DNA of 64,000 bases from Amphiscolops sp. MND2022 (taxonomy: Eukaryota). Positions 7,616 through 43,600 of this stretch are shown here, in pieces. Made by a program: the position numbers and the translations under genes. Position 1 is the stretch's first letter. The number at the start of each line of letters is the position of its first letter. The stretch spans positions 12,278,001-12,342,000 of the forward strand of contig OZ076409.1 in NCBI GenBank assembly GCA_964187785.1, written 5' to 3'. The notes under the pieces are model-generated. The model did not search any database and was not told where the DNA came from. It saw nothing but the letters and a program-made list of their open reading frames with translations.

Positions 7616-7983
7616 TTGAGCGAGACTTGAGTTTCAAAACACATGCTGCCAATATCTCTGCCTCAGTGGTTATTTTCTGGAAAGAAACTAGTAAACTTTT
7701 AACGCAAGGATTAAATCCATTTTACGCTGTACGTATCTTTTATTCATATGTGAAACCACGAGTAACGTACTGTATGACTATATGGATTCATCAAAATATG
7801 ACATCTCAGGACAAGATGTGTTGGAGTGTTCATAAATCTATCTTTGGGATAAGAAACTACCAAGTTTCGAAACAAGTAGTTAAGTTAGTGTTTTAAGTAA
7901 TATTTGGCCTCCTTCTCTACTCTACACTAATCATGTATTATTGTTTCTATTCAACTGCTAGAAGTGCAGATATTTCAAACCCA
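7616..7983 (+). pseudogene. LINE-A ORF2 segment 2 (RT thumb region)
   Basis: ERDLSFKTHAAN...RIFYSYVKPRVTYCMTIW continues the LGLWF motif interrupted at 3085. Confidence 0.85.
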
Positions 7984-8694: not shown

Positions 8695-8702
8695 TCCTCC
8701 CC
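8695..8702 (-). promoter_or_regulatory. Polypurine tract
   Basis: GGGGAGGA on the minus strand immediately precedes the 3' LTR. Confidence 0.8.
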
Positions 8703-17294: not shown

Positions 17295-17297
17295 CTA

Positions 17298-19274
17298 CTA
17301 GCGGATAGGGCCGCGCATGTGCAAGTATTGTTGTACCGTGAACCGTAGTGCTTCCACTGTTGGAGGAGTATCCACGTACTGTTCTTGTGCGTACAGGAGA
17401 TTTCGCTTCAACTCAAAGCTGCGTACCCCTTCGATGAACCTCTGCATGATTTCGTAGCGCCTTACAGTAACTTCTTCGTTAGGAAAACCTTGGCTGCGCA
17501 AACCTTCAAGAGCGTCAAGATACTGCATGTGGTCTTCGTCGTCGGACTGATTGCGTGTACGGAACTGCTGTTGTATTTGGAACTTGCTAGATCCCGTTCC
17601 AAATCGACGCGCTAGTAGCGCAATGACTTTTTCATCCGTGTCGCGCTCAGCCTCGGACTTGTTCGTAATATAGTCTCGTGCCTCATTCTCTAGGAATTCA
17701 ACGATGGTCCATGCTCTGTCCAGTTGAGTATCCTTTGCGTGTGCTTTCTCCAAATAACGTTTCATGAGCATTAGCCAACCATCTATTATCCCGTCGCGCG
17801 CACCGCGGTATTTCGTTGGTATATTCTTGGCTTCTTTTGCTGCTAGCAATGGTTCCAAACTTTTGGACATCGCGCTTGTTATTGCTTCGGCTAACGCTTG
17901 TCCATGTATGGTGTTCGGTGTATTGCCTTTTGCAGCCTCTTCTACTGTTTCTGGATTCAAATTTCTTTGATCGCACTTCGTCCCACTCTGGCACTGAAAT
18001 ACTTCTCTATTGGTGGGTTGCTGAATTGAAGATTCATTAGTGGATGGTACGTTCGCAGGGTTTAGTGCCACCGGCACAGGTGAAGGACGACTTGGTACCG
18101 TCGCCATTACAGCTTTTACACCTAGGGTTAAATCTTGAACTGTAGTCATGAGGTCCACCATGCGCTTGTCGACATCTATTTCTCTGCGATGCATCGTTTC
18201 GGACATGAGCGTCAGTCTTTCATCGGCTTGTTGATCTCTTTGCGCCATTATCGCCGTCATTTCCGATATGCGCTGTTCAGTTAGACCCTTGACTGATGCC
18301 ATTGTCGTTTCCATTTTGTCCTGATTGATGCGCCCTTCCGTCTTCATTTCAAGCACTCCTCTTCTCAGTTCCTCCACTTCTTTCATCAAAACTTCAGCTC
18401 GCTGAGCATGGTCACTATTCTCTTGGGATAGTTCTGCCTGGACTTGTTTCAACTGTGCCATGCTCCGTCCCAAGTCTTCGTTTATGGCTTCAGTTTCCTT
18501 GATGCCTCTAGTAATGGTAGAACTTGAAGATGCAACGCTACCTGAGCCTGAATCTTGGGGAGTTGCCGTGCATTCTAGTCGGAAGGTGCTAAGATCTAGC
18601 AGAGGTGGTGTGGTAAAGGTATAGTTCTGGTTCACCTCTTTTGCAGTCTCCCGCTTTCCCAGCTGGTTTCCTGGAGGAGTACTTGCGGTGTCAGCAACAG
18701 CGTTCCTACTAGCAGCAAACAAAGGAACTCCGGAACCCAGCGGGTCCACATCCAGACTCACTTGTGGTGTAATCTCTCCAAAGGCCGTGCCTGCATTCAT
18801 GTTCTCTACCCATTTGCTAATGTCCGAGCTAGTAGCTTGTTCTACATTCGAATTTGGCCAATCTGCCCAGGCAATCGCAGAGTTATTCACGGGAGGCCAG
18901 ACGCTGCCACAGTTCATGGCAGTGCCATTTACAAAGTAAGCGCTATCCGAAGATGCTCGAGAGGAGTTTAGTTGGCTGATGTATGCCATTTGCGAGTTTT
19001 GCTCGGCATTTGACATGTTATTTGACATGACGTCGTACAAAAACATGTTTGCAATCATGTCATCCGCTGCTATCTCAGCACGTGCACTAAGCCCAGACAA
19101 CTCCTCTACCTCGCTTGCAAATGGATTCGTAACATGGAAGCTACTAGACTGCCTATTCGATTCATTCAAAGACTTCAGATGCTCAATCTCGCCTGAGTTC
19201 ATGCTCGATGGACTGCTCGGACTACTGTTTCCTCTGGTAACCCAGCTTTTGAACAGGGCTTTGGCTTTTCTCAT
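17298..19274 (-). CDS. gag: Gypsy Gag (coiled coil + capsid-like domain)
   Basis: 658-aa ORF. KYRGARDGIIDGWL..FLENEARDY..LARRFG..QQQFRTRNQSDDEDHMQYLDALEGL is retrotransposon Gag-like. In frame with pol but followed by TAG TAG. Confidence 0.88.
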   Translation of the reverse strand: MRKAKALFKSWVTRGNSSPSSPSSMNSGEIEHLKSLNESNRQSSSFHVTNPFASEVEELSGLSARAEIAADDMIANMFLYDVMSNNMSNAEQNSQMAYISQLNSSRASSDSAYFVNGTAMNCGSVWPPVNNSAIAWADWPNSNVEQATSSDISKWVENMNAGTAFGEITPQVSLDVDPLGSGVPLFAASRNAVADTASTPPGNQLGKRETAKEVNQNYTFTTPPLLDLSTFRLECTATPQDSGSGSVASSSSTITRGIKETEAINEDLGRSMAQLKQVQAELSQENSDHAQRAEVLMKEVEELRRGVLEMKTEGRINQDKMETTMASVKGLTEQRISEMTAIMAQRDQQADERLTLMSETMHRREIDVDKRMVDLMTTVQDLTLGVKAVMATVPSRPSPVPVALNPANVPSTNESSIQQPTNREVFQCQSGTKCDQRNLNPETVEEAAKGNTPNTIHGQALAEAITSAMSKSLEPLLAAKEAKNIPTKYRGARDGIIDGWLMLMKRYLEKAHAKDTQLDRAWTIVEFLENEARDYITNKSEAERDTDEKVIALLARRFGTGSSKFQIQQQFRTRNQSDDEDHMQYLDALEGLRSQGFPNEEVTVRRYEIMQRFIEGVRSFELKRNLLYAQEQYVDTPPTVEALRFTVQQYLHMRGPIR

Positions 19275-21480
19275 TACTCACTTCTTGCTTCTTTGTGTAA
19301 AGTCAAATACAAGGCAAACAAGATTTGGGAGTTTTGACGTACTCCTTCACTATTAAGCAAATTAAACTATGGGACCACTACGTTCTGGGGCTTGCAGCTC
19401 GCAATTGCCTGCTATGTTCTAAGTCAAATGAAGCTGGCTTACAAACTACAGTCTCCAGATTACATGTACTGGTGCTAATCACCACTAATCAGAACAGAAA
19501 TGTTTGCTACCCCACTAACTGGAGATAGTTTTCCTACGAAAAGTTAAAGATGAGTTTTTTTAATTTTTTTTTGAAGTACTTTAGAGGTTACTCACACTAA
19601 ACTACGCTTTACCCAGCCACAGGCTATGCGGTTGGAATGAACAGAAAGGTTTTGGCACGCTAACAGAGCTTTATGGAGATTTATTCAAGAAATCTCCGCA
19701 CTTTATTCTGTGAGCGCACTCTATGTTACTCGCACTGCCCTTTATGAGGAGAGCACAAGTAGGGTTACTACAAATAGGGAACTCGGGGATAGACCTTGGG
19801 GGTGAGTAGGTGCTAAGAGACTAACAAACAAGAGAGTTTTACTAATCTGATGATTACAAGATCAATGGAGACACGGTTCTTCACACTTTCAGATGCTACT
19901 GTACTTAATGTACTTTGGCGAGACGCAGCGCGTCCTAAGTCTAAGTCTCGTGGGAAACTCCTAAATGCGTTCTGATTCTTACACTATGCTTCGCATTCGA
20001 AGTATGCGTGGCTACAACTGTCAGTTCGCACTTAGGTGACTCTGGTGGCTGTTAACAGAGAAAACACGATTTTGGTGTTTTTCGCTTCTACGTCTCGTTG
20101 ACAATCTTTCCACGAACCCAAGATCTTAGGGTTGAGCTAGCTCTATATTGATTGCCTCAACAAGACGTGCTATGGGTGCCTGGTGTAGAACTAGGGTCGT
20201 TGGAGCACTCACGTGCGACTATACCTACGAAAAATACGTAATTTTTCGCAAAATTTCTCAAAATCAGCAACTTTTTCGCCAATATGCACGCCTGGAACAG
20301 GTGGAAATCACTTCTAGAGCTAGTAGCGACCTGAAAATTTAACACGGTATACTACTGTGGCCAAATCGTGGGAAAATCACCATCGATTGCGCTAAAATTA
20401 ATTGCACGTGACTTGGGGTCGTTCAACAATGTTATTGCAAAATTTTACAATGTTGTGAAATTCACACAAGTCTGTCAAACTCGCCTTCTAGGCTTCCTAG
20501 CTACCTGAAATTTTGTATGCGAGCGTGAATTATGCCCACGTAACAGAAAAATAAGTTAGCAGGGTGCCCAGGTCAATATTCCGCAATCCGAGTCGACAAA
20601 ACTATGATGTACCCTGTATGTCACTCTCAGGGGTTAAAATTCACAAAATTGTCAATTTCTCTAAGTTGGGCAGTAGCAAGCTGCTCAAAATGCACAAATC
20701 GTCGGAATCGAGTGCCGTATGCACGAAAATGCAAGAATTTTAGTGCTGGGATACCTGCAAGGTATTGCACTATGCTCAACTAAAATTCAATTTTTTCGAC
20801 ATTTCCATACGGTTTTTGAGCAAAACTGCGGCTAAGATTTCTCAATCACTAGTAATGGTAGCGCTACGAAAATTACACCACTAACGTAACTTTTTGCGGT
20901 CTACACGATGGTGCAATCCGTTTTGGGCTACTCCTGCTAGGAGAGATTTCGACCTGTCTTGGGTACACTACTCCAGTGTTCCGAAAATGTCGCAAAAATA
21001 ACACGTTTTTGGCTATTTCTCGGCAACTACAGGTTGGAATCACTCGCGGTTTTCTGCGTTTGCAACGTTATGCTTTATACTAACAGAAAATAGGCAAGCG
21101 AAACCTGGCAAGTTCCAAATAAGGTCTCTCAAAATAAACTTCAAGTTACACCTCTGACACTCTGGGAACAATGTGAAAAGTACGTATTTTCCCTAGGAAC
21201 TTTTTATTTCTTGGTTCCCAGATGTTCGGGATAGTTCTAAACGTAACGTAATAAGGTGTAATAACTTTATTCACGGGACTGGGGTTGTTTCAATTATTAG
21301 TTTTGATGTTATAACTCTCAGGTCTATGGGGTCCTCTAGTCAGGTCTATGTATAACAAAAGAAAGTAAAGGGTTAAACTATCAATTTATATTGGGGAAGG
21401 GTGAAAAACGTCTTGGCAGTAGTGTTTTGTACCACCAAGCTCGGGAACAGTGTTTTTGAGCAGCTCTGAAAGCTTTGGAA

Positions 21481-22050
21481 CAAACGCTCAAGGCTTCGCC
21501 CTCACCACATTTGGTCTGTTAGGCCAATTTTGGGTCTTCACAAACAAAAATCGCTAATTTTTTTGTTTTCAAGTAAATTAGCGGGTTAAAAAATTTTGTT
21601 CCTAGCCTGATAGGTCTAGTGGAACGTTTTTCTTGTATTGCCACTGGCCGTACCCTCTTCTGAAAAATTTTGGCTTTTGTAACTAATGATGACCGATAAA
21701 TGGCTATTGTATTAAAATGAAAATTGGCTGGTAACTTATTCAATATTTCGTTGGAGGGCCTCAAAAAACTGTTTGACGATAACGTTTTCTGATATCTGGC
21801 TCGGGAAAAAGAATTTTAGGTGGCTCGCAATGCTCTGAGAAAAACGAACAGGGCTTCGCCCTCACCAAATTTCGTCTCAAAGTCCAAATTTGACGATTTC
21901 AAACAAAAATCGCCAAATTTTTTGATGTTTTTGGTAATTTAGCTAAACAAATCGTTCTGTTCCTGACCTGACAGGTCTGATAGAACGTTTTTATTGTATT
22001 CCCATTGGTCGTACTATCTTCTGAAAAATTTCGACTTTTAAAAGTAACCA
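21481..22050. repeat. Diverged ~360-bp-period duplication in the Gypsy 5' leader
   Basis: GGCTTCGCCCTCACCA..AAACAAAAATCGC..GGTCT..GAACGTTTT..GTAC..TCTTCTGAAAAATTT recurs at ~21492 and ~21852. Confidence 0.75.
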
Positions 22051-22621
22051 AATCGAAATTAGAGCTATATAGGGTGTTATGGCTAGCTCGCTATATTTTT
22101 TCAGAAAACAATCGGAATACCCAGTGGGTATTTTTCTCAGTTCTTACTAATGGGAGTACGCTTGGGAATAGGCTTTTAAAGCCACAAAAACAAAAAAGGA
22201 GATTGTAACCCAGCCGATTCGTAGTGGTCCACCAGTGGGTCAAGAGGGTGTTGCCGTGAAGGACGTCCCACCGTCGTCACAGCTAGTGGAGGCGCTCACA
22301 TCACGTCCCTGCAGTCCCAATACATTACAACTAAGCTGAAATGAGACTACAAAACCCTTTAAAACAGAATCCGGTTAAGCCGGATGGTTAATCTCGGTAA
22401 GCAGAAACGGTGTCAAAACGGTACTTTGCCGTAAATCAGTTATTTCTCTTTCCAGACCCCGGAAACATGCAGGAAACGCAGGAATTCAGCTAGAAGAAAA
22501 CCTAAAAGGTTTGATTAAGGCAATAAAAAAAATCTAGGACTCTCCAAAATGTTTTCCTAGATCTGGACCCTTCGGGGCCGGAAAGCAGAAGTTGCTCCTA
22601 CGTGTACGCAATATGAAAAAT

Positions 22622-22639
22622 ATCCCTTGTGGGGCGCCA
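22622..22639 (-). promoter_or_regulatory. Primer-binding-site-like sequence (tRNA-Lys-like)
   Basis: TGGCGCCCCACAAGGGAT, similar to the Lys-type PBS TGGCGCCCGAACAGGGAC, but 16 nt inside the 5' LTR edge. Confidence 0.65.
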
Positions 22640-22655
22640 TAAAAACTATCCTAGA

Positions 22656-23366
22656 TGTAACGTCAAGCTAACAGCTACATTCCAGAACCGGGACAATGCC
22701 CAGGTTGCCTTAACAAGAGACCAGTGTCTTACAACAACCTAAACATTAGTTTTTGGTCCCAAATGGTCTCTGTAGGGACTTTTCCAAGACGCCGAGGAGA
22801 CTCCTCATATTAGAGCTCCGTGGCGACGTGCCGGCACACTCAAAGTCCGGACACGTCCCACAAGCACGTAAAAACGGTCCTAAAGGCTTCCTGCGATCCT
22901 ACATACCTCCGAGGTCTGAAAACAGGGGTTTAGTCAGAGCACATCTCAATTAAATGAATAACGTCTAAAATCAACACCTTCCAGGTTTACCATTAACAAA
23001 CACCTGAAAATCTGCCAAAATACTACAAAACAGCACTGGGGAGGCATTCTGAACAGTTCTCAGCGAGTTTTGAGCTTTGGGTTCAACTCACGCAAAAATC
23101 GCACCTTCTTCTTCATCTCTTTTCCGGCTCATTCTTGCGATTTTCCGGTTTTGATGGCACAACACTGGGGTATTGGCTAGTTTCTGCTTCTGAATATCTT
23201 CTTTCGCTGCTTTTCGGTCTTCTCTGTGGTCTGGGGGGGTCTTTTTGCGTTGTGTGTGCTTCCTTTTCGATTTCAACGACCTGCTAGGTCGGCCATTTTG
23301 ATTCGCACACTTTTTGGGTATTCTTCGAATTTTTGAAATTTTTGACCTTGACTGGTGGACGTTACA
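22656..23366 (-). repeat. 5' LTR (711 bp)
   Basis: Direct repeat of 7984-8694 (offset 14672) with TG...CA ends. Confidence 0.97.
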
Positions 23367-25665: not shown

Positions 25666-28600
25666 GTATTTTGACATTATTTTGAAGTCGCCTCATTGTG
25701 GTAGCATGTTTCTGATAAACGGCGCAATGGCCGCATCTTTACTGCATGCCAACTGGCTAAAATTCGTGTACCATTGAATGTGCAAAATATTTCATCACAT
25801 TTTTTCTGCTTTAAACAAGCATGAATGTTGAATAATTACTATTTCACGTCACTTAGGTGTGGAGTATCTGACGATAAAACTTTTTTTACTTCCAATTTTT
25901 TTACGATATTTTTATTTCTATAAAACATTCAAAGTTTAGATGTTGAATGGCACAACTCGGGGGAATGGAGCCGCTCGAACTATTCAGGAGCGAACACATT
26001 TCACCAAACTAGCGAAGTGAGTTGATATTTATGCGTAATGATTATTTTTCTTTTTCTGATAGGTACTAGAATACTTCTCTTCTCTAGAAAAGTGGGTAAA
26101 GACTTGGCAAGTACATGCGTCAAACTGGAGAAACTAACAATGTGTAAGTTGCTTTTGGGTTTAATCAATTTATTGCCAATTTGATTGGATCAATTTTCAG
26201 TTTTTGTGTTTTTCAGTGGCCAAGAGAAAAACCCTTTTCGACGACAAGCCTTTGGAAATTCAAGAGCTTACGTACATCATCAAACAGGTTAGTTATGAAA
26301 ACCACTATATAACTTTCGGACAACTTTCGTGTGATGAAATGCACTGGCAGTAAAGGCGCTTTTCTACTTTGATTGAAGTTTTTGGTTCCAGACTTGGGCT
26401 ATGTGCGTTGAATGAAACTAGTTCTCCTAAATTTCACTTGCAAAAGACTCGTATATGAGGACAAAAACGGTTACTGGATACTCTCGAAAGGAAAAATAGT
26501 TTAATGCAAACTTAAGTGCATCGCAGGAAAGACAATATGTTGAACAGATATGAGCGACAGATAACGAGTAATTTCTAAAAATGTTCCATTCGTCTGAAAG
26601 TTCAGAGAATGGGACTTTCTCCTCTTCTCTTTATCTATCCTCGCATTACTATGGACCGTGCCCATCGAAACCAGAAAGGGCAATGATTTAACCCTAATGA
26701 ACCTAGTAGTACTTTTTTGCAATTTCGGTTTCCTTTTGCCATCAGCCTATATTCTCTAGCACAGTTTTTTTTCAACAATTCATTGGTACCCATCTTGATT
26801 TGAATGGCACAAGCATTATAAAAGTGAATAATTCCAAAGCCGAGAAAAATGAGTTTTTTGCACAAAATATGGTTATATTGTTCCAAATTTCAGTTTTTGG
26901 CGAAATCCAGTTTTCTCAGAAGTCTTTGACCAATAGAAAAAAGCATACCATTCCACAAGTCCTTGTGCAACAAACCCCAATAATATCCTGTTGTTACTAC
27001 AAGCCCTCGTGCAGCTCACCTGACCAAAATTGAAGCCCAATACCAGACCTTTTCAACTACTTTAATTTAAAGAAAAGAAAATATTATCAAGAGATAAACT
27101 AAAGCGGATATTATTTTGAAATAATGCTATAATTATTTTATACCATTCTTTTGATCTTCGTATTTTGCTCTTCCTCGGCGTCATACCTGTAAAACAAATA
27201 CATAGATGAGGGTGGTGTCGATACGCTGCAAGGTATAGAGCCTCTCCTCACTGTCAGTTCTGAATGGATAAATTGCTAAACCTCGACAAATGGAGGGCAA
27301 ATTTATGGAATGAAACACCTAAATAAATGCTTGTCTGTAAATAGAGTATCGGAATTATATTGCTCATCAAAATAATGGGAGTTTGAGAGCCTCCCCTCTT
27401 CGACAATTGCGTTCATGGGCGACTCGGGCTATCTACTTTCTCTGATACACAAAATCGAACCGAACAGAATCTCTGAATTCCGATCTGGTGTGGGTGAAGT
27501 CATATTTCTGTAAGGAGAGCGCATTGAGCAAACTAGGAGCACGTTTTCCGGATGGCAGCTTCGTGGCGTATATATCGCTTCAGTTAATACTTCTTTCGGG
27601 TGTTCCATTTTCGTTGTTTTTGTTTTGTGAAGTCGCGCATGATTCGGTACTGGGAGTTTTCCGCGGCACTAGGAGTTCCATTTCTTTCAGACACTTGCTC
27701 AACGGTACCGATCGTGAGTAGTCTCCTGTGCGGTTATCGGGAGAGAAGATGTTGAGGTCGCCGTTCTTAAGATGGAGAAAAAGCAGTCGCTCCTGTTCGG
27801 GAAAATGCCCATTTTCCGAGATTGTCGTCTCTGCCTTGTAAGAATGGCACCAAGTTTGGGAACCAAAGTTTTTTTTACACCTTGTGTGAAAGTCGTATAC
27901 GTTGCGCGGAACCTTTCTCACGTGAATCACTAAACACCTAGCGGTGAAAGCAGTGGGGTATACGCGAATTTAAAAAATGAATTTTGTGATATAGAGTTTA
28001 TGATGATCGCGTAAGGAGTTATGGTTGAAATGCCAGTATAAACTTTCTGGATTATTACAAATACAACTTGTTAATGTATAAGTTTAACTCGATTTTCTAG
28101 AAGAGATTTTAGACACTATTTCGGGATGTTACGAAAGATATAACCAATTTCTTACGTTCTTTTCAAAGTTGATCCCATTTTAGAAATTATTAAGAACTGA
28201 CATTGCAGTAAAGAAGCGAAAGACCTAACCAATTTTTAGGAGTCGGAAAAAATTTTCGACTATTATGCAATCGTGCTGTTTTTTTTGTTTTTTTTTCTCC
28301 CGACCTTTTCATGAAAATTTCAAATTTCTCAAAAACTGTCCATACGATTTTCACGAAATTTTGCACAGTCATTCTACACCCAAAGGGGCCCCTGCGTGTG
28401 CAAAGGCATCAAAATCGTATGGCTTGGATGTGAGAAACATAGCCAAAATTAGCCCAAAAATGGCCAAAAAACAGCCATTTTTCGACTTTTTTCGATTTTC
28501 TCAAAAACTGTCCATAAGATTCGAACCAAATTTTCTACAGTTATTCTACACCATATTAGAGTCCTATATGTGCAATGGCATCAAAATCGTATGGCTGGGA

Positions 28601-31600
28601 TGTGAGAAACATAGCCAAAATTAGCCCAAAAATGGCCAAAAAACAGCCATTTTTCGACTTTTTTCGATTTTCTCAAAAACTGTCCATACGATTCGAACGA
28701 AATTTTCTACACTTATTCTACAGCATATTAGAGTCCTTTATGTGCAATGGCATCCAAATCGTATGGCTGGGATGTGAGAAACATAGCCAAAATTAGCCCA
28801 AAAATGTCCAAAAAAAGTCATTTTTCGATTTTTTTCGATTTTCTCAAAAACTGTCCATACGATTCGAACGAAATTTTCTACAGTCATTCTACACCATATT
28901 ATGGTCCTTTATGTGCAATTTCATTAAATTCGTATGGCTGGGATGTGAGAAACATAGCCAAATTTAGCTCAAAAATGGCCAAAAAAACAGTCATTTTTCG
29001 ATTTTCTCACAAAAACTGTTCATACGATTCGAACGAAAGCGAGTCAGAAGGAAAAAGACTTAAGCCGACTCCTTTACCGCATATGCGGCTCTGGTTTACA
29101 ATCTATTCAAAGTAGTTTCGAATCTATTCATTTTAGAAATAATGAAGAACTGACATTGCAGTGAAGAAGAAACAAGCAAAATAGCTTAAATTGAGGACAA
29201 TCATCATCCGTAACGTGAATAATACCATATATCAAAAAGTCAAAGAACAATATGATGTCCAGATGCAAAATCATTAATAAAATTAGAATGTTTCAAACAA
29301 GAAAAGTAATACGTCCTCAGCAAAAATGTTCAGTTTGATGGGCCGCAACTTGGCAGACCTTTTTATACATGGCAATAGTTGATTGCGGACATGATCTCAA
29401 GCTCATTCTAATGGCAGTTTTGTTCCCGTTAATCCTTCTTGGTAGCCTCGCCAGTGTTAGCATCAGGTACAGGGATAGCAGCGTTAGAATTGTTAGCAAC
29501 TCCGTTGGAAGTGTCAGATGCTCCTGTAGTAGTACCGGTCGCTGATGTTCGTGTGCCAGCGCTATTGTTAGATGATCCTGAAACGGTTCCCCTAGCGGTG
29601 GCCTGTTGGAAGGAAGTTCGTGCTGGTGATTGAGGCCGGGGAACAACATAACCAGCTTGGACTGTCCCGGGAGTATCGTGAACAACAGAGCGCTGATGTG
29701 CTTTGTATTGCAATTCTTTATAACTTTCTCGCTGCAAGATGGATGGTTGGATGACACCTATTGATAAAACATGAAACGGCGAGTTGTTGGACCCAATTGC
29801 AACAGCAGCTGTGGAAGGCTTCAGCCAACCATGAATTCGGAAACAGCCATTATCATTTATGAAGTTGACACATTTTATAACTGCATCCTCGAAGTCGAAC
29901 TCATCAAAAGTGTCAGTATCTGGGACGAGAGAGTTGTAACCGTCAGTGAAAACTGTAACGACTCGTTTTGATGTGAAATATACACTAAGGAAGCCGACAC
30001 GCTCTCCTTTCAGCTCATCACAAAAACCAATTCTAATGTGACACCTCAAGAATGTTTTTTCAAGTCCGTTTCTTTGCAGCCACATAAATCCTTCAATGTT
30101 TGACCGTCACAAAACTTACCGCTTTATTACTGAGACACGGTACAAACTGAAAGGATTTGAAGGGTTACCGTATTAAAGCAAAAATGTTGGAAATCTGCCA
30201 TTTTGGGAGAGTATTTTGGCAGAACTGCTGAACAATCTTCCAGGAATATAGGGACTACGGGCTCGGCAGTAGTCAATAGAGGATTGTCAGAGTCTTGCAG
30301 AAGTTTTTCGTCTCCGTGACGCGGAATCAGTAGTAGACATGTTGCACCTGGGTGTAGATTGGGCGAGAAACGTAACAATTGGCAAGTTTCGGCGTCGTTG
30401 GAAGTGAACATCCCGAAAACTCTGTCACTACCTGCCTCAGCAAAAAGCAAGAAACGATGAAAAGCTGCTTCCATAGTTTTTGCTTTCTCTCGTATGCGAT
30501 ACATTCTTACTGGTGTCGATGTCTTCTTCACGTGAAGAAGAATGCTTGGGAGCTTTGTCCTTTGAAATCCTTCTTTGGGACTAATAATATCTTCTAAGGT
30601 CACTCCTGAGAATCTGGAGCTCGCCAAATTCATGACACGTTCCAACGACAAATTTGCAGAAATCAGCGGCATTTTGTACAAATCTGAAGCTAAAGTAGAC
30701 GATCAGATACGATAATTGATGAAACTTGTTGAAGCAAATTCAAATAAAAATCGATGCAACCTTTATATTTTTTATTCAGTCATCAACAATGTTAAAAATT
30801 CGTTTTGAAGGCTATCAGAGGAAATGGTATCTATTATAAACAGTATGTTTACGATTCAGTAATTTATTGAATCTATTGTAAAACTTTATAAGATTTAAAT
30901 TTTGAAAGTAATGTATTGAATTCCGTGAGAGTACAATGAACTATGGAGCATAACTTATGGGCATCTTGAAAAGTGATAATGTATATGAAAAAAACTAAGG
31001 AAAAGAGGTTAACGAATCATTGAATTGCACATTATACTACAAACAACAACCAATTTGAGGTGAATATTGCAACGAAAGTGAAGTCTCATCAAAATAATTG
31101 GATCACAAAAATTACATATGATCGTTTCCGAGTAACAACATAAAAAAAGCTCAAAAAGTAGTTTGAAAGAATTTTATAAAGTAATCATTCCGCTATAACT
31201 TACATGACAACTAAAGAGTTGTTTGATGGGGCAGGAGAAAAAATATCAGTTTATGAAAATTGTTGCAGGCCGCTAGTTGCATGCCATAACGGAGACATAA
31301 ATTTTCCATATAACAGGATTCAACAGGCCGAGAAAATTCTCACACCAGTTAGCTAAGTACCTTGTACGAACCAGGTTAGTTTGTAGATCAAATAAATTGG
31401 CACATGTCGAATATGGTAGAGATAAATATAGCTGTTCTTTTGTTATTCATGGTCGATGTCTTCTTCACGTGAAGAAGAATGCTTGGGAGCTTTGTCCTTT
31501 GAAATCCTTCTTTGGGACTAATAATATCTTCTAAGGTCACTCCTGAGAATCTGGAGCGGCTGTTCGCAGCATGGGATATAAAGACAGGTAACTGAGGCTG

Positions 31601-34600
31601 AGATATCTCAGACCAGACTGTTGAAAGAGAAAATCAATTTAATACGGGAGCTCCTGTATCACGTTGTTCACCGGTCGCTCCCGCATCGAGAACTTTCAAC
31701 ATTTGTGATTTTTCCCACCACAACGATTCGCAGCATAAGTTCTTGATTATTAGGAAAAGCGTTTTGAATAGATTGGTGAGCAATATTGACAACGTCATCA
31801 GGGCTTGCAGATCTTCTGTTTGTCCTGACATAAAAGGCGACATCTGAGTGTATTTGTTGTTCTAATTGTCTGCGCTGTCGTTCGTTATTGGACATGTCGG
31901 CTGTATCGAATCCTGTAATGTAAGCAAATACACCCCAAGGACGTCGTTGAATTGGTTTTGTAAATAATGCTCCTTGCCCTGCATTATGTTCATACAAAGG
32001 TCGTGACAGACATTGTGTTTCTCCGACGTAAACCAATGATGGATAAGGACAACTAACAAGAATATACACATAGCCGAGCTTGGAAGTGGGTAGACATCGG
32101 AAAAAAGTTTGAAATGTAATGTTTCACAATGAATAAATTGGACACGAGTGGGGCCTGATTCTGACATCAACATTTTCAGGAAGCTGTCAATGTAAGAAGT
32201 TTGATGGGAAATTCGAGCAATTGCGAGCTTAATGGTAGCCATCACGTCATCTTTTGGACCAACGAATGTTATGTTACTCAGATTTGGTACACGACTCAGC
32301 AAGACAAGTAGTTGTTCTCGATGCCAAATGGATTAACTGCGGTCAGTCGGTGAGATTTTAGTCTGAATTGATGGTAGAGTACAACCTATTGCTTTGTGAA
32401 TTGTACTAGAAATATAATTTTTCAAAGGAAATTGAGTTCGTCTGATATGAAGATAGGAAATCACATTCCCAGTTCGTCTGTTATGACAACTGGTCTCCAG
32501 CCAAGTGGGTTCTGTTTTAGGCATTGGTATGTTGCGAACACCTGGTGGTGCAACCCTAACAGTAAAAGATGCAGCCGAAGGAATAGGTAAGTGTAATAAC
32601 ACCGCTAATGTTCCTTGTGCAACACCAATTGCCTTAATGTTCGCAGTGACACGCATAACTGCACCGGTGTATAATATTAGTTCTTCAGGTTCAAGACATT
32701 TGTAAGACAAGTGATCAGTAGCTTGTCGACTGGTTTGTTTCCAAACAGATGAACCACTTACACTTTCTTCGTCGCGTGCTGACATTTTTACGAAGGGAGT
32801 GTCTGTTAACGCAACTCCAACCAGGTGTCGATTGAGAGCAGCAGTCTCAGCGAATCTTGTACTGACGATCTTGATATCGGTGTTTGATATAGAGTCGTCC
32901 CAGTCATTACTGAAGGAGCAATTATCATTTATCAAGTCACATAAAGTATTTATATCGTCGCTGTCTATGTGGGTTTTGTCTAAAATCTCCAACAGTTGAC
33001 GTAGAGGCCCGGGACTTGTGCGGACATATTCAGCAAAATAAAAGAAATTGTAGTTTGTTAGCATTGAAGGATTTATTAATATTTCTGCTTTAGCAGGAAT
33101 ATTATTGAAATCTGGAAACGTCTACTTTTTTTCAGAACAATTTTTCGGACGATCTGAATAATTCAGATATTTTGTTCGGCAGTGAGTGTAAGCGACAGAG
33201 CTGTCGAAGACAATTCAATTCTAGTGCGATGGAACGAGCGAGTGGTAATTATCCATTCGTATGCTGACGTCATTGAGATGAAGCGAGCGAATGTTCGTAA
33301 TTGTGCTTTCGTTGCCCCGAGTTATTGAGATGAAGCGAATGAGTGTTAATTATTCGTTCGTTGAGAGCTTCGCCTGCATTCAAATGCGAATGCGAAACTT
33401 CGTCTACGCTTAGTAGTTATATTTTCTTTAGTCCGAGAAGAATTAAAGGCGGTGTAAACTTGTACAGTGATTAATTGTGCCGTAAGTAATGATTAAACAG
33501 AAGTGTATTGGTATTCCCGATATGATTCTTTTATTAATGATTTTTTTGTTTCAAAAAAAAGATTAAAGCAGAAATAGTACTGAGCCCCGGAGGGGCCTAT
33601 TTTCCAAACTGAAGTTCCTTCAGGAGGCGGTAGTTGATTGGGGTCACCGGATAGCAAACACAAAATGCCACCAAACGGAAGGTTGTTGCCCTTTACCCAC
33701 TGCATAACTTTGTCAAAGGCAGACCAAAGTTCAGCATTGAGCATGCCAAACTCGTCAAATAGAATTACATCCATCTGTTCCAAGAAAGATAAACGCTTTC
33801 TATTATTCAGCAATCCACTGATGGATTTTTCAAGAACGTTGACGTTGAGATTTTTCTATACAGGTAGACATGCCAAGTGATGCAAATGTTCTCCGAGCGA
33901 TTGTGCTCTTTCCCCATAAGTTAGAGCAACTAACAGAACACTTGTTTTTCCACTGCCGGGTCTTCCTATAACTAATTGGTGCCTAGTGAACATGTTAGAA
34001 CCTTGTGCAAAATTATCGATTTCATTTTGTACAACTTCCAGTGTTTGGACTTGTTTTTGATACGAGGTTGAGGTTTGTCCGGTTGTATGCAATACTACTG
34101 GTTGCCACGCAATCGGGTCAGTTTTGGAACAACAGACAAGATCTATCACACTGGGAAAGTTGTTTACTTTTCCAGTCTGGAGCTCAAGTGCGTTAAATTT
34201 TTCTTTTCAACAAGGTGTATTGCAACTTCTTCGCCTAAAACATCGACAATGTCTCGTTCCAGAACAGTTGGTGGATGATTTAGGTACAAGTCGTTGTCGA
34301 TCAGCAGACTTTTTAGTATCCTGTAAGCTGAGAGCAAGTACTTGTCGAACGACCTTGTTGCTCCGTGAAGAAACATAAGAACCTTCAACGCGTATTCTCT
34401 CGTGATGGCATTATCCTCGCTCAACGACACATTTGATGCGTTTCTAATTAGACCAGCGACCTGAAAGGACTGCTTCAATGATGACTGGGTGAACAAATCA
34501 TACTCTGTAGCGAAACGTCCCATTGTAAAAAGAATGTGGACACAAAATTTTAGAGGATTCAGTGGAAGAACATTTGATGTTACTATTTCAACAGTTTGTA

Positions 34601-37600
34601 CATTGTCTATGAGATGTTCATCGTTGACCCCGTGGTCAAGGTAGTTTTGAGCAATTTGCATGACTTTATTCAACTTGTGAATATCACTCACTGTTGATAA
34701 CCTTGCATTACAATACTTAACAAAGTCGTAAGCACATTGGCTTCTGAGGTAAACTGATCTGTTAAGACCGTCTATCCAACCATTGGTCGAAATACTTTTC
34801 TTAGAACTTCGGTAAAAAAAACCTGAAGTATTCGAGAGGCGAGTCTATTATAAGCAAATCCGGGGGGCGTATACCAAAAATTGAGAGTTTATCCGCGTGG
34901 AATTTGCTTGTCTTCAGATCCATAATGAGTAATTTTTGTGACGCAGTAAAATCACCATGTAAAACGTTCATGTTACATATTGGATTTGAAACAAAACCAG
35001 GCCCTTCCTTCTCATTTCGTTGTACGATTCCACCTCTGCTGTGTCGTGGCAAAGTGGAACATCTAACAAATTCCTTTGAACAATATACGTGTGGATAATT
35101 GAGTACGAACCAAATGGACTCCGTTAGACAAATGGTTTGTGCTTCAACGTGTTTTTGTTGTCGCTTTTTCGAATTCTTCAGCGCAGCCTTGACTCCACTT
35201 ATTTTTTTGGTAAGGATTCGCTGAACGTTAACGGCTAAGGAGTCATCTGTGTTTGCAGACACTATCTTCGAAGTTGCACGTTCTTCGATACCAGCCGCAT
35301 ATTTGGCAATGTACCTCGCACAAAGATATCTGTCGCTAACTTGCACATTCATGCTAGACTTTGTCAAACGGAACAGGCTGATGTTCATGGGGGAAAGGTG
35401 CTCACCCATGTCAGCGGGGTAGAGAAATTTGCCATCCACCCTTCAAACTTTTGCAGACTTCAAAATCGTCATCAACGCCTATTCTGGGGAATGCCAAATC
35501 AAGTTGTTGCATTAGACGCAATGCTTCTGAACTATGGGGAGCACGAATTGGCATATAGGAGTACACATGCGATGCTGGGTATATTGGAACGCGATAGATG
35601 GGACTACCGTCGTCTTTGGTTTTCTTATGACATCTGAAGATAGCTTTAGAACAATCATGTGATTGTATAGCCATGGCCAGTTTGAAAATCCGATCTTGTT
35701 CGATCTGTGATAACGGCTTGGAAAACGCTTTAAGTTGACAAATTTCATTGTGTATGGCTTTTCCTGAACAAACAATTCGGCGTTGAACTGTGAAATCATG
35801 GTTATCTTCATCTGTCCAAATAACAGCATGAATATGAGGCAAATTACCAGTCGTTGTTTGAAATTCATAGCGATACCACATTTGAGTGACTTGGCCGAGC
35901 GGTTGCTCAGGCGATTTCTCAGTATATCGCATCAGTGCTTTTGAAGCCCGTTCCCAAGCTCTGGTTAAGATCACCATTTCTGCTTTAACGGCCGCTTGCC
36001 ATCTTTCTCGTGTCGGGATTTCAATGCTTTAAATATGGGAGCAACTCCGAAATGTTCATCCAGGTTACACGTGTGGGTTGTAAAATAATTTGGTGAATTA
36101 TTTGCAATCATTGCCGACCACTGATTCACACTTTTTCGAAAGTCGGCTTCGTCAAACTTCAGTACTGATTCCCCGGCAGTTTTACATTTGTTTTTCTTTG
36201 GGATTTCTTCTAGACCACGATCCACGATGAGAGAAGAATGGGCGTTTGCCAAATAGTAATTGTAGACAATATCGAACAACCATTGAATGTAACTTTCGTC
36301 AGTTGAGCACAGCAAGGAAACATTTTCAAACGAGTCATCATGTGATCCACCACAGTTGCGAAACCGAACTTTTTATTTTGATCATCTGAGAACAGACTAC
36401 TACAAAGAGAACCAGGGTAGTTACCGTCTTCCTCGCTTTTGTAGAATATTGTTGAAAATAGCATTGCATCGGGGTAAAGAAGAGGTACACTATTTCCTTT
36501 AGAGGTTGCTACAATGTTTTGAAGCATTCGGCGACTGTGATCATTGCCTGTAATAGGCTGACGATTCCGGCGCAGAAGATGGCAATCCGTATTAAGTAAC
36601 AGATGAGACGGTATTGACTTGTCGGACACATTAATATCGTAAATGGGCATTGGACCAGAATCAGTGATATCAACATTCGAAGGAAGATCCTCGTCTTCAA
36701 GAACAGCTCGCGGAAATTGCTCCAATGCGTCATTTTCAACATAAAAATCCCAAATATCTTCTTCGTCGGTGTCTGTATGTTCTGAAGTTGCCTCAAGTTT
36801 GTTAAATTCAGGTAAGTTCAACTCTTCAAAAATTTCCTTGTCAAATCCATCATCGAGTACAGTATTTTCTTCAACTTCGGATTGAATATCATTATTACGA
36901 ACTTGAGACAGTGCTTCGTTGTCATCTTGCTGAGTCGGTTGTTCAAACATTGAAAAATCATTTTGAATAGGATCTTGTTTAATTTTAAAGGTCTCACAAT
37001 TGGACAGCGATACTGTGTCAAAATGTTTTTTGCAAATGCTCACTGCACAATCATCGTTAGCACATCTAAACTTTCCAACTCGTTTGCAGTTTCTCCCAGA
37101 ACATTTAAAATTAGTTTTTCGTGGGTTTTTAGTGAGAAAGGAATTGTGTTTATCACCGACAATTGTGCTTTGTCCGCCCAAAAACTGCAAGTACTCGGCT
37201 CGACAACTCCAATATGATTAATTTGTGATATTAACGTACATGCAGAAATTCCAACGTTGGTGTGCTTCAAAAAAATCATTGTCGAAATCTTGACGAAATG
37301 GCCTCTTATTGTTGTAGTCGTATTTCCACGAACCCCATTTTTTCTTTCCGTGCCGTGTGTGAATGGAGAGAGATGATTCACTAAAAAAGGTTAACATACG
37401 AAGTTCTAACTTGGCGTCACCAACAACAATTTCAGTAGGAAGTAATTCAGCTGATACTTCACTTCGACTGATGCATTTGAAAACAACAGCTGGAACAATC
37501 TGTTGAAAGCCTTGCACATCATTCCTTGACAGAACGTCGACTATTGGTACTTGTGGAGTACATGAAACTAACAATTTTGTGACTTTCTCCACAAGATAAG

Positions 37601-40600
37601 CATCATGGAATGTTCCAAGGAAATGTGTAAGAAAAACCTCAGATTTGGTCCTTTGAGACGGTCTGATCGTTGGATTGTGATTGAAACAGCTACTAGCAAG
37701 TTTTGAGACGTGCTCACATAATGCGGTATCAGAAGCTGCATTTTCGTTGACTAAAGAACAATATTCGGGATTGAGGACCATGTTACATAATAAAAACCAC
37801 AATAAAGGCTCGATGTTTGTGGGAACGCTTGGGGGTTGACATCCGAAATCAGTATTTATTTGAGCAAAAAAAGCTTGATAAAATTTATTGTTAGCGTTGT
37901 TTTCTGCTTGACGTTTCATTCCCATAGCTATATTGAAAGGTACATTGGTAGCGGAATTCAGTGCTTGTTGAACCACGGCATCACTAGGACAAGGGTTAGA
38001 CACAATGGTGTTTTTAATTGATTCCTTTATCTCTCCAGTTGCGACTAAATCATCCAATAATTGTGCAACGTCAGATCTGTTTTTAGCAGTGAGACCTTCA
38101 GCACTAGGCATGGTGTCTTCTGCATGCACATCCCATTTCCTCTTGAGACCTTTTCGCTGAGAACTAGCTCCAGCATAACCCACGTCCTCTGCCACGATGC
38201 AGTATGTGTGAACAGAGTATTTCGCTTTCATAGGGTGTGCAACTTTAGACTGAATAACAGCGGGCGCAAGTCTATTAGAATATTTGAGAGGAAATGAGCC
38301 AGTAGCGGGATTTGTAGGAGGATGGACGTATTGGAGTTGAGACCCTTTGTTGTGGTCGGAACAAGTTACAATTAAAGGGCCGTGTTGGCTGCTAAGGTAA
38401 ATGAAAGGTTTTATTATGAAACAATTGTGTTCTTCTTCGTCTAACCAATCAGACCGAGCTCCATTTAGATGTTTCCTGTAATCTGCATTAAAAAATGTAA
38501 ACGAAGGAAAAAGATTATTAAGAAAATGTTGAAGTGAAATGTAACCAATATATTCTTTGTCCTTGAACGTGGTACATCCGAAGGGACATCTAACATCAGG
38601 AAAAGCAGTTTTATTACAGGATTCTTCAATTTCATCCATAATATTCATCTTTTTAACTTCTTATAAATGATCAACTTTAGCGGTAACATCAGCAAATTGA
38701 AAATGTGGTAAATTGGAAACGGCCGCGTATCGTAAAAAATGCTGCCAAAAAGTCTGTAACGACGGTGGTAATATGTACCAAAAATGTTTCCCACGTGTTG
38801 GTATTTCAACAGACACTAAACAAGTTAACAAAGCCGATGGCCAGCCGTATTCCCATCTGTCTGATGCAGTATCCCGGCGCAAATATGTATAACATAAGTC
38901 ACAAACGAGAACACTGACTCGTTTCAACTTTCGCACCAAGTCTTCTTTTAAGTATGGAGTTAACAGACACCTCTTGCAACGGACCACAATTAAGACGACG
39001 ACATTTACAACATTCTTCTTGATTTAACGGAATCTGATCTAATTGACTGAGGTCAGGAAATAATGATATTACACTACTGCTGGGAATGACTGTAACAATT
39101 GAACTTACTGTTGGTGATTCCACTGAGGCCGAGATCATTTCGTTCTCAGACCGTTGAATACTCACTTGTTGGGTGGTGTTGCAGTTGTTACATTCAGAGA
39201 GACTTTTAGCAAACATACCACAATTTAGGCATTTACTTACAGATCGTCTCTTTCGAGGAGGCATTTTGCAAATGACAAAAATCTGAAAGATAATAAAACC
39301 TTGTGAATGTAGTCAAATGAAATATCAAAAAGCCCATATGTTAAACGGTCCTAAGTAGACGAAGAAATCAATCAGAAAAATATTTTAAAGTTACCTATTT
39401 TTAAGAAAAGTTCATAAATTACGTAATTTACGTTTGCCATTGAGTAACACTTTTTGCAATGCGTTTCATTTAGATCTAAATTATTGTGAAAGTATTTTGA
39501 ATGTCGCATAATTTTAACAAAAGTTCATCAAAAAAATCTTCGTTAACCATTCTATAATTGTTGCAAAAGTGCTTGAATATCGTAATCTAAGTAAACCATT
39601 ATGAATCACTGTTTGAGATGAATTTCAAGTAGTATAAAAAGGCTGAAGAACTGGATCAGTTAATCAAAAGTTTTATAGAGTAGATAAACAGTTTTCAATT
39701 GACGAACTCAAAACTAATAAAATTCAACTCATCATCAGTATTTGAAACAATAAAACACAAGTCACAATGCGTAAAATAACTAACAATTGAGAGTTTAAAA
39801 GAAATGGATTCAATAGGTGATGACAAACCAGAAATCAAAATTCAAAGTTGCATAAAACAAGTGAACGCAACAACACCAAAACTATTGATTGTAATTCAAT
39901 TTTTCAAGATACTTTCGCTTTGACGGGCTATTTTTTCCGGCAATTCTTCGTTTTCCAGGGCCTTTCGTGAGTTCCATTAAACTCTCTCATTGTTGCAAAA
40001 TCTCGAAGCATTTAATTTCCAGGTTTTTGTTAGGATGCGCAACTGTAGTGTCGAAACATTTATACTCTGGCGGCAGATATCGTTTCATGTCCAGGTAAAT
40101 TATTCCTGGCGGAGAGACATCCGGGAGGCAGGAACCCAAATCAATTACAGAGTCATTCCTGCGGAAAAACAGGAAGGCAACAACTCCATAGGCTCTACAT
40201 TCGTCAAGCAAGTCTTTCAATCCTTTTTTTGTCAGTGCCGAACTCTCTTTGAAATTTGATAACGAATTGTTTATGGCATCGTGCCAAATGATGATAGGTC
40301 GGTTATTCTTAAAATCAGCGTTCTTTAGGGCGTACATCAAATTTTTGTTGGGATGTCCTGCAACATTACTGGTAAATGCCATCCCGGGTTCAGATTTAAT
40401 TTGCTTCAATTCGTCTTTTGTAACGCCCAAACTGTGCTTTATCCCGTCAAGCGAACTGGCACCAATAACATTGAATTTCAACATAGCGACTTGAAATAAA
40501 AGACAGATCATTTGGACTACGTACATGAAATCGCCTAACAAACCAGTTAAAGTATTGAACATTCGAAAAAACAAGCACGTACGTGAAAAAAAAAAACGAA

Positions 40601-43600
40601 AATAACTTAGTACGTAACTATCAATCCAAATCAGTAATTTAAAAAACTTTCCGGACAAATGAGGCCGAGTATAACTCATGCCGTAAAATGTTGTAAAATT
40701 CTTGAAAATTTAAAGCCGATTTAACGTACGTTGGAATCCTACTAAATATGTATATCAAAACTAAGGCCGAGCATAGCTCATGCCAAATAAAGAAGCAAAA
40801 ATTTAAAAGATCGAGGCCGAGTATTACTCATGCCAATTGAAATTAAAAATTATTTGCAGACCATAAAACGTTCACGTAATAAATTTCAATTTAAAACATT
40901 TAATTTAAAGAAAAGAAAATATTATCAAGAGATAAACTAAAGCGGATAATATTTTAAAATAATGCTATAATTATTTTATACCATTCTTTTGATCTTCGTA
41001 TTTTGCTCTTCCTCGGCGTCATACCTGTAAAACAAATACATAGATGAGGGTGGTGTCGATACGCTGCAAGATATAGAGCCTCCCCTCACTGTCAGTTCTG
41101 AATGGATAAATTGCTAAACTTCGACAAATGGAGGGCAAATTTATGGGATGAAACACCTAAATAAATGCTTGTCTGTAAATAGAGTATCGGAATTATATTG
41201 CTCATCAAAATAATGGGAGTTTGAGAGCCTCCCCTCTTCGACAATTGCGTTCATGGGCGACTCGAGATCTACTTTCTCTGATACACAAAATCGAACCGAA
41301 CAGAATCTCTGAATTCCGATCTGGTGTGGGTGAAGTCATATTTCTGTAAGGAGAGCGCATTGAGCAAACTAGGAGCACGTTTTCCGGATGACAGCTTCGT
41401 GGCGTATATATCGCTTCAGTTAATACTTCTTTCGGGTGTTCCATTTTCGTTGTTTTTGTTTTGTGAAATCGCGCATGATTCGGTACTGGGAGTTTTCCGC
41501 GGCACTAGGAGTTCCATTTCTTTCAGACATTTGCTCAACGGTACCGATCGTGAGTAGTCTCCTGTAAGGTTATCGGGAGAGAAGATGTTGAGGTCGCCGT
41601 TCTTAAGATGGAGAAAAAGCAGTCGCTCCTGTTCGGGAAAATGCCCATTTTCCGAGATTGTCGTCTCTGTCTCGTAAGAATGGCACCAAGTTTGGGAACC
41701 AAAGTTTTTTTACACTTTGTGTGAAAGTCGTATACGTTGTGCGGAACCTTTCTGACGTGAATGACTAAAGACCAAGAACTGTGCTAGTGAACAATCTGAA
41801 TATTATTCGGGACGAATAGAGGAGTATTAACTTTTTCGAGAAAATCTTTCTTGACAATAAGATTGCATGTTCGTTTGAAGCCAAAAGCAACCGTTTTTAG
41901 TCGGCGCATTTTAGTAAAAAATGAGCCCGACTATTACCGTGTCTAGTTTTTTTTTCGTCAGATAACAGAATGTCTGCGTAGTGGAATTTTTTTACAGAAG
42001 TACTGGATCGACAAGCGGAAACCGAAGTTATTTGCGTTTTACTGAAGAGGAGGCGTAGGATCGAAAAAAGCGCTAGCGTTTGTTTCACGGTTCGCTATAT
42101 CCCAACTTCTGAAGCGTATTCCGAGCACGAAAGGTACCCTTACGGGTTTCGAAATTGAGACATTCATTTAAAAAATGCCCTGAGCATATCCTAAAATCTT
42201 GGCGCTTTAGGTTCCTAAGGCGTTGCCGCCGATAGCGTACTAATTTGTCGTTTTTGACGTAATTGTTCAGTTTTTGGCGTTCCTGGAGTTGTTCCCTTTG
42301 AGAAACTATGACTCTCTCATTGACGAATAATAACGAGAACGATTTATTGGAGTTTCTGATCGCGTTGATTTGTGATTGTTTGGAATCGTTCCGATGTTCT
42401 GGAGCGCAGGTTTTTACTAGTTAGACTTGAATGTGTTTTTGGTATCGAGTAGAAGCATTGCTTCCGCTTGGGACGATTAAAAGAAATTTCGTAACGTGAA
42501 TAGCATGTCTAATACCCCATTTCTGTCCGATTGATCCTGGAGTTTTACGCACTTCAATTGGTCTGACACAGTTGGTTCTTGTCGATGGGTATTAAACGGC
42601 TGGCGTTATAGACAACCAATTCTTCTGTCTCGAAGTCACTTGTAGCTACGATAGAAGCTAACATGTCCAATGTTTCGCCGAGCTCAGCGGAAGACTCTGA
42701 AATTTGACAAAATCCGATGCCACTCATTGAACCATGGCGTACTCCTGGATGAACCGTCCAGTTAGTCAAAAATCCCGAGATATATTGCAATGTGTCTTCG
42801 TACTGATTTGAGACTGCGTGATTCTCAGAAGGTTCTGACTGTGCCGGGTGCTTGTCGGCGAGTATCTGGTACACAGCTCATGTTTTGATTCGATCGTCCA
42901 GGGCCAATACTTGTGTTTTTTGTGTTTTGCCGAGACATGGTAAAGCGTTTCAAATTTCACTAGCTGTCATAAAAGCTGGAAGAAAAACCATGTTGAAAAT
43001 GTCGATGTGTACTCTTCGGTGTCTTGATTTCGTTGGCCTGAAACCCCCAGTTGTCGTGGTTTTCCTCCAGTTAACCGCTTTACCATAGTACAGTAGTCTG
43101 TCATGAATGATTGGCATGTGTTAGAAAGACGTTGCCGTATGTTTGCTATATCATTTTTGAGCAAACAAAGTTAATTTTGATGGGATTGGCTATCGTTTAG
43201 GTCGAAAGTTAAAGCAATGCGAGAAAGTTTCTTCTCTTCGTTTTCAAATAAAGGAAGAAATTTGTTCTATGTTTTATGTTGAGCCTCAGACTTTTGACGT
43301 TATATCCGAACTATATTGAGTTTTAGTAAAGAGGAGGCGGATGTTCGAAGCAGGAGTTTTCCTTGAAAACATCATACGCATATTTTAAAAACTGCTTTTT
43401 GAGCCCTAGATATAGCGCCGACTTTAGACGTTCCCGTCTTGTTTAATTTTTCCTCGACTTCACCCTGAATAGAAGATTGTGAATAGATTTTTTATGTGCC
43501 CTGTCAATCACAGGTGAGCAAGGAGGTGCTGTGTTGTCAATAGTAATTTGTTGCAGGATCTGAATTCTCTGAATCAACAGATAGCGCAATTGGGAGAAAT

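Follow-up and report, generated by a model that had tools for sequence, protein, structure and literature searches.

An SLX1-type GIY-YIG domain ends a divergent group of Rep-Pif1 transposases and has probably lost its active site repeatedly

The stretch analysed here, 64,000 nucleotides of contig OZ076409.1 (positions 12,278,001 to 12,342,000, forward strand) from Amphiscolops sp. MND2022 and called the window throughout, carries on its minus strand the broken gene of a Rep-Pif1 transposase, with a HUH Rep region upstream of a Pif1 helicase. The last domain of this transposase is a GIY-YIG nuclease domain of the SLX1 type, and the fusion is real, as intact relatives encode all three parts in one open reading frame (ORF). 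The group is large and barely described, and the residues at the active site suggest that many members have likely lost cutting while still spreading. Coordinates are those of the window.

The nuclease domain is part of the transposase

The first-pass annotation, made from the sequence of the window, proposed that an SLX1-like nuclease is fused to the Rep-Pif1 protein at its C-terminal end. In the relative P0218 (2,411 amino acids; two members on two contigs), the helicase, linker and nuclease occupy a single frame that reads through the junction, and the RRL triplet of the catalytic region is kept. This protein is colinear with window 39264-31637 from residue 1 to residue 2411, with 55-84% identity per block and 63-84% over the main blocks (tblastn). 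The distance from helicase motif VI to the codon of the first catalytic tyrosine is 224 nt in the window and 75 codons in P0218; the nuclease is thus C-terminal to the helicase as proposed, not directly after motif VI. The frameshift expected before the nuclease is present as well, near 32102-32107 within a T run rather than at about 32070, and for this shift alone a homopolymer error of the assembly may be the alternative.

Relatives were picked with the C-terminal half of the helicase as the only query, so that the nuclease cannot bias the selection. The search covered 1.84 billion representatives and returned 481 matches, the best 150 of which were analysed; 38 of these end less than 140 amino acids past motif VI and were set aside, leaving 112 tails. 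The window GIY-YIG domain finds a match downstream of the helicase in 92 of the 112, and a GIY profile, built from 73 of the same 112 relatives, detects 108, starting 60-100 amino acids past motif VI (median 67). With shuffled tails, the same profile gives 0/112 matches at an independent E value of 1e-3, the best being 0.0035. A word-index search of longer proteins with the GIY domain alone found no match, which is weak evidence.

Among 18 hand-picked long proteins, Pfam detects PIF1 in 18, GIY-YIG in 16 and Helitron_like_N in nine, and neither a reverse transcriptase nor an AP endonuclease (Exo_endo_phos) in any of the 18. A separate search with the Rep region of P0002 gives 56 proteins, P0218 among them; 28 carry a precomputed PF01541 and none of the 56 a precomputed Exo_endo_phos. 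The architecture predicted from the window therefore exists in intact relatives. The opposite case, in which the nuclease is an unrelated insertion after the helicase (a Penelope fragment or a captured piece of host SLX1), is refuted and keeps next to no probability: the nuclease and the helicase of the window copy stand in different frames and other insertions lie nearby, but the frame of P0218 is continuous, the spacing is fixed in about 100 relatives, the 18 long relatives contain no reverse transcriptase, and a RING-like pattern is seen in 0/112 tails.

The transposase relatives are about 2,200-2,800 amino acids long, and intact ORFs with 99% amino acid identity are present on several contigs, a sign of mobility. 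One relative, from Perkinsus olseni, is named 'Slx4p interacting protein' in the database. A metagenome scan yielded one locus (L001) from 48 matches. Among viral contigs no relatives were confirmed (90 pattern matches, 0 confirmed), and a viral origin of the elements is not supported. P0001 has a 97%-identical helicase C-terminal half on another contig, with a frame that differs near window 32510, and is either a further copy or the present locus in a different assembly. Several relatives have an additional protease domain, namely Ulp1/Peptidase_C48 behind the nuclease of P0110 and OTU-like domains in P0016, P0039, P0102 and P0009.

The domain belongs to the SLX1 branch

In the window copy, the nuclease peptide lies in the minus-strand ORF 31668-32123 (six-frame translation), and Pfam matches GIY-YIG (PF01541) at 32090-31836(-) with an E value of 3.9e-5 and 24.3 bits, above the cut-off of 22.6. 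The AlphaFold model of 31671-32090 has a predicted local distance difference test score (pLDDT) of 92, and its top 11 Foldseek rows are all SLX1 or At-HIGLE chains (best E 8.6e-6). When family profiles are compared with solved GIY-YIG chains, Slx1 is the best match (E 8.8e-14 and 4e-15), followed by HIGLE; UPF0213 is far weaker (1.4e-6 against 4e-15 for Slx1), and small UPF0213 proteins also give weak matches. Pfam, the family profiles and Foldseek thereby bear out the earlier assignment to the SLX1 branch. Matches to leucine-rich repeats were rejected as repeat artefacts.

The SLX1-type active site (Tyr, Tyr, Arg, His, Glu) is present at the level of the family. The window domain retains the equivalents of Tyr14, Tyr26, His40 and Glu79; the codon aligned to Arg36 of Cg-Slx1 (32000-31998) encodes proline, which agrees with the earlier reading of RPL in this copy. 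No RING-like pattern follows the domain in any of the 112 relatives. The active site of Cg-Slx1 includes Arg36 and Glu79; Slx1 cuts Holliday junctions, flaps and splayed arms, and the Cg-Slx1-Slx4 complex leaves duplex, nicked and single-stranded DNA uncut (PMC4407285). At-HIGLE performs the same kind of cleavage without SLX4 (PMC9071465). By analogy, cleavage of branched DNA is predicted for the domains described here.

Active-site residues are missing in many relatives

The full set of six residues (Y, Y, G, R, H and E) is kept in 73 of the 112 tails, which points to selection for catalysis. The 77 long proteins comprise 45 with a complete site, 25 without Arg or Glu, six without the tail and one ambiguous case. 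On a FastTree phylogeny of these 77 proteins, calculated from the Rep-helicase columns only and carrying a midpoint root and SH-like (Shimodaira-Hasegawa-like) support only, the state of the active site changes at least seven times among the 70 labelled rows, and to one side of the root the complete site is present in every one of the 16 rows. These changes are read as losses, given that the complete site agrees with that of Slx1 and occurs throughout the tree.

The HUH, YxxK(Y/F) and Walker A/B patterns are retained in 23 of the 25 proteins lacking Arg or Glu. In the P0215 cluster (13 members) the site is dead in 11/11 full-length members tested, and in the P0242 cluster (eight members) in 7/7 tested; 'dead' is called from residues only, and some cluster members may be one locus seen in several assemblies. 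A complete active site is found in near-identical intact copies of the P0218, P0007 and P0222 clusters. Since the active site appears to have been lost repeatedly with Rep and helicase intact, the nuclease is likely accessory, not essential.

Four relatives (P0014, P0015, P0036 and P0254) stop 13 amino acids after motif VI, and three near-identical members of the P0015 cluster end within three amino acids of that point. The early end of this sub-lineage would be accounted for either by a nuclease that is truly lost or by an intron that these proteins have in common.

The window copy is decayed

The transposase gene of the window (Table 1) contains about eight frameshift points and in-frame stop codons at 38663, 37220, 33858 and 32335. 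Its helicase part is also interrupted by a foreign insertion, roughly 500 bp long, that matches dispersed repeats at 58824-59218 and 46629-47017. Given the four stops, the shifts and the insertion, this copy is likely dead, in keeping with the decay first suspected from the lost arginine. The Rep region has a Helitron_like_N match with an E value of 8.6e-5, under the Pfam cut-off.

A downstream gene with predicted OB folds

Downstream of the transposase on the same strand lies a second broken gene, ORF2. It matches L001:4062-5099 (BLASTP E 4e-25 and 7e-6), and its profile matches the window at 30651-30067 and 30073-29687. L001 contains the end of the transposase and, 1.4 kb further on in the same orientation, a 346-amino-acid homologue of ORF2, which itself has 13 relatives. 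For each of the six ORF2 clusters looked up, a member lies on a contig exactly as long as one that carries a transposase relative, and the five contigs of P0169 all equal in size those of the P0007 cluster. Outside L001 the linkage is therefore indirect, coming from matching contig sizes, and implies no distance.

Pfam and PDB sequence searches with ORF2 gave nothing significant, and the ORF2 fragment of the window had no usable Atlas match. Language-model features place it near POT1 (0.94), CTC1 (0.93) and MEIOB (range 0.91-0.94). The structural model (pLDDT 69) matches CST/RPA-type chains in Foldseek (E 1.2e-5), and OB domains of CST, RPA, Teb1, HIN and MCM10 are among its matches, each half of the model matching OB domains (VIA Z at most 6.6). 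The product is predicted from this model to be a tandem OB-fold protein binding single-stranded DNA (ssDNA). RPA, HIN and Ssb-like genes are known in Helitron-like elements (PMC11417382, PMC4067079).

Candidate ends, flanking repeats and other features

The features of the element and its flanks are collected in Table 1.

Table 1 Features of the transposase unit and its surroundings in the window
Feature	Position	Strand	Evidence or remark
Rep-Pif1-GIY-YIG transposase, broken	31634..39264	-	tblastn of P0218
HUH Rep motif 2, 7 residues between Q and first H	35828..35866	-	motif; Pfam Helitron_like_N
Rep motif 3, two tyrosines (YxxKY)	35299..35313	-	motif
Pif1 helicase, N-terminal half	33604..34206	-	Pfam PIF1 E 4e-10; Walker A 33943-33966; Walker B
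Foreign repeat of ~500 bp within helicase	33070..33600, ends approximate		tblastn gap
Pif1 C-terminal half, motif VI, linker	32102..33097	-	74% identity to P0218 residues 1919-2256
SLX1-type GIY-YIG domain	31700..32090, core 31836-32090	-	Pfam, profile alignment, AlphaFold model, Foldseek
106-bp exact duplicate of ORF2 part (30515-30620)	31452..31557	-	just past transposase stop
ORF2, broken, homologue of conserved downstream gene	29429..30672	-	BLASTP, profile
Perfect palindrome of 12 bp past ORF2, candidate hairpin of the 3' end	29077..29088		match in 5/100 shuffles; pattern picked post hoc
172-bp tandem repeat, 4.2 copies	28318..29038		candidate element part
881-bp direct repeat, downstream copy	27061..27941		97.4% identical to 40899-41776
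881-bp direct repeat, upstream copy	40899..41776		97.4% identical to 27061-27941
20-bp motif, three copies, internal palindrome	40663..40834	-	candidate 5' end, origin or Rep-binding sites; pattern derived from the copies themselves

The 881-bp repeats stand on either side of the 13.8-kb unit. An insertion that was tandem or derived from a circle could have left them, or a separate repeat may be present twice; the copies of the 20-bp motif lie just inside the upstream 881-bp copy. Canonical HLE1 elements have 5' TC and 3' CTRR ends, a 3' hairpin and an A|T target, and HLE2 elements have asymmetric subterminal inverted repeats, hairpins and a T|T target. Inverted matches between the element flanks are limited to three, of 11 bp each, and none of nine candidate end windows contains an unusual hairpin (best z -1.5). 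No Rfam or tRNA matches were found.

Upstream of the transposase, a 165-amino-acid ORF (39987-40484, -) has motifs resembling those of SGNH/GDSL esterases; the frames of this region, this ORF included, gave nothing significant in Pfam and PDB searches. A weak THAP-domain match at 42088-42420 (-; E 0.034) possibly marks a decayed DNA transposon. Elsewhere the window, which is eukaryotic in character, holds an element resembling a long terminal repeat (LTR) retrotransposon (7983-22954), with pol ORFs at 9996-17294 (protease, reverse transcriptase, RNase H and integrase) and direct repeats 99% identical, starting at 7983 and 22655. A further reverse transcriptase fragment (3930-4829) and a 635-amino-acid open frame without a Pfam match (54739-56646, -) are also present.

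A proposed role in transposition and its rivals

In Helraiser, one donor strand is used, double-stranded circles are formed, and cleavage and transfer are strand-specific (PMC5876387). By analogy, Rep would nick the element and attach to one end, and Pif1 would peel off one strand, with circles forming and integrating. The predicted OB-fold product of ORF2 would coat and protect the strand that is peeled off, and branched structures at the donor, the circle or the target would be trimmed or resolved by the GIY-YIG domain. Where the domain is dead, structure-specific nucleases of the host or active sister families could stand in, and such replacement would explain why many families have a likely inactive domain. 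Reasoning from these analogies, we judge it rather probable that the SLX1-type domain acts as an accessory nicker of flaps and junctions in rolling-circle transposition. The idea of the first-pass annotation that the nuclease processes rolling-circle or integration intermediates thus keeps the standing of a suggestion, weakened by the loss of the active-site residues in many lineages whose Rep and helicase motifs are intact.

Several points weigh against the accessory role. The nuclease activity is predicted from sequence and fold, and transposition is deduced from multi-member clusters, some members of which are perhaps one locus in several assemblies. The OB-fold call depends on a model with a pLDDT of 69, Z values of at most 6.6 and zero Pfam matches. 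Of the 77 long proteins, six terminate ahead of the domain, and in three of these the end lies 13 amino acids past motif VI. Families with active and with dead sites are found on equally long contigs, and help in trans from the former to the latter is possible. Slx1 by itself is weak when Slx4 is missing, and the RING-like pattern is seen in 0/112 relatives here. Finally, Helraiser transposes without such a nuclease, consisting of N-terminal, Rep and helicase parts only (PMC5876387).

The main rival is nicking of the target site, by which the domain would set the insertion preference, as an add-on of the homing type that disappears when the targets have been filled; we regard it as unlikely. 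The domain occupies the same C-terminal slot as the Helentron endonuclease, hypothesised to nick targets (PMC4067079), and the repeated decay of the active site fits a cycle of gain and loss. Identity within the family is also at least 99% in four families whose site is intact, compared with a mean of about 91% in three Arg-less families, a comparison of few families in which one domain-less family likewise reaches 99%. Against target nicking, the closest solved relatives are structure-specific rather than sequence-specific, and Cg-Slx1-Slx4 spares duplex, nicked and single-stranded DNA (PMC4407285). An Ssn-like role, in which a site-specific ssDNA nuclease reads a terminal hairpin of the displaced strand and helps end replication, is improbable. 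The Ssn proteins, GIY-YIG enzymes of small size, cleave ssDNA where hairpin repeats occur (PMC11893778), and the hairpin-like motifs at 40663-40834 and 29077-29088, together with the weak matches to small UPF0213 proteins, would suit them. However, SLX1 and HIGLE score far above UPF0213, and the hairpins are candidate ends only, with 0/9 windows folding unusually well. Termination in Helraiser is, moreover, a function of Rep.

It is also very improbable that a structural or branched-DNA-binding role is what lasts, with catalysis secondary. Dead domains do keep their length, spacing and N/P/W scaffold residues (the N in 105/112 relatives and the P in 105/112), and two deep dead clades of seven rows each on the Rep-helicase tree share this conservation. 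Yet they diverge faster than the helicase: in one bin, dead-domain pairs are 28% identical and their helicases 43%, against 42% and 44% for active pairs, the pairs not being independent. The complete active site is, in addition, kept in most lineages. For an SLX1-type domain located behind the helicase, nicking of flaps or junctions is the simplest reading and the favoured one.

Significance

These elements bear on how strand-transfer intermediates of Helitrons are resolved and on what captured nucleases do; for the AP endonuclease of Helentrons, the function is stated to be undetermined (PMC8788227). The clusters with a complete site (P0218, P0007 and P0222) and those with a dead site (P0215 and P0242) form natural paired controls with which the cutting step can be tested. 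Because the standard Rep signature is missing and a relative is misnamed in the database, such elements are probably under-annotated in eukaryotic genomes.

Comparison with known systems

The group shares the fold and the active-site layout of SLX1 and At-HIGLE, and differs from both in being fused behind a transposase helicase, in the missing RING-like pattern and in being often catalytically degenerate. In Penelope-like elements, GIY-YIG is joined to a reverse transcriptase; in the window, the reverse transcriptase matches (3930-4829 and 14607-17294) are remote from the GIY-YIG domain.

A Helitron-like layout is present, with a HUH Rep (HxH, two tyrosines) upstream of Pif1 in one ORF. Published Rep motif 2 reads (V/I)ExQxRG(S/L)(P/L)HxH, and (V/I)ExQxRGL(P/L)HxH in Helitron-like elements of the HLE1 type (PMC4067079). 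Neither the HLE1 nor the HLE2 form is found in the 104 proteins of at least 1,200 amino acids, and RGSP is absent from all 104. A 7-residue spacer without Arg is present in 76/104, and 18 of the other 28 have a related GNx(P/S)HxH. The F/Y-x-R triplet of HLE2 is mostly W-x-R here, a partial resemblance only. With HLE1 and Helraiser (PDB 7LCC; PMC5876387), the group shares the HUH Rep with two tyrosines and the Pif1 helicase, and its predicted OB/RPA-type gene is placed downstream, as is the RPA gene of HLE1. Helraiser, with 1,496 amino acids and no extra nuclease, is far shorter than the transposases described here, and the family profile aligns with 7LCC over one stretch, the helicase, no better than with bacterial Pif1. 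A motif scan of viral contigs for canonical Helitron references yielded 37 stretches, and in every case the matching ORF was devoid of a P-loop helicase. The 'HLE Paramecium' third clade (PMC13085455), compared by its description only, likewise has large divergent Rep-Pif1 proteins (3,052-3,592 amino acids) outside HLE1 and HLE2, and satellites inside the elements.

Helentrons and HLE2 (PMC4067079, PMC11417382) resemble the group in joining Rep-Pif1 and an extra C-terminal nuclease in one ORF, in a separate ORF with a predicted ssDNA-binding product here, in the aromatic-x-R before Rep motif 2 and in the OTU-like domains of some members (4/18 long relatives here). In contrast, the Helentron nuclease is an AP endonuclease, QxRG(S/L)PHxH occurs in 0/104 proteins here, no DUF6570 match is found among the 18 long relatives, and RPA is enriched upstream in HLE2 (PMC11417382), whereas the predicted OB gene lies downstream here. 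That a second, unrelated nuclease was recruited to this C-terminal position suggests that selection has convergently favoured a cutting step beyond Rep and helicase.

The nearest published counterpart is HelenSM92, an HLE2 family of Sphagnum magellanicum with a GIY-YIG domain 'captured and transposed' besides RepHel (PMC11417382, Suppl. Fig. S8); the comparison uses this one-sentence description only, and HelenSM92 may be the same fusion or lineage. The first-pass annotation could not say whether the fusion had been reported; a brief mention thus exists, and no fuller account was found in literature on Helitrons with GIY-YIG, SLX1 or URI nucleases, a search with Repbase and subscription papers outside its scope. 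The available sections of PMC8788227 do not mention GIY-YIG, and those of PMC6431247 do so only for Penelope-like elements and Terminons. New here are the predicted OB-fold downstream gene, a Rep motif outside the HLE1 and HLE2 signatures, and the recurrent loss of the nuclease active site.

In conclusion, the group has a Helentron-like layout and departs from Helentrons in nuclease type and Rep motif. The chances are about even that it forms a separate, widespread rolling-circle lineage outside HLE1 and HLE2, with its own Rep signature, an ancestral SLX1-type fusion, an OB-fold gene, its own resolvase and recurrent nuclease-dead families that rely on host or sister enzymes.

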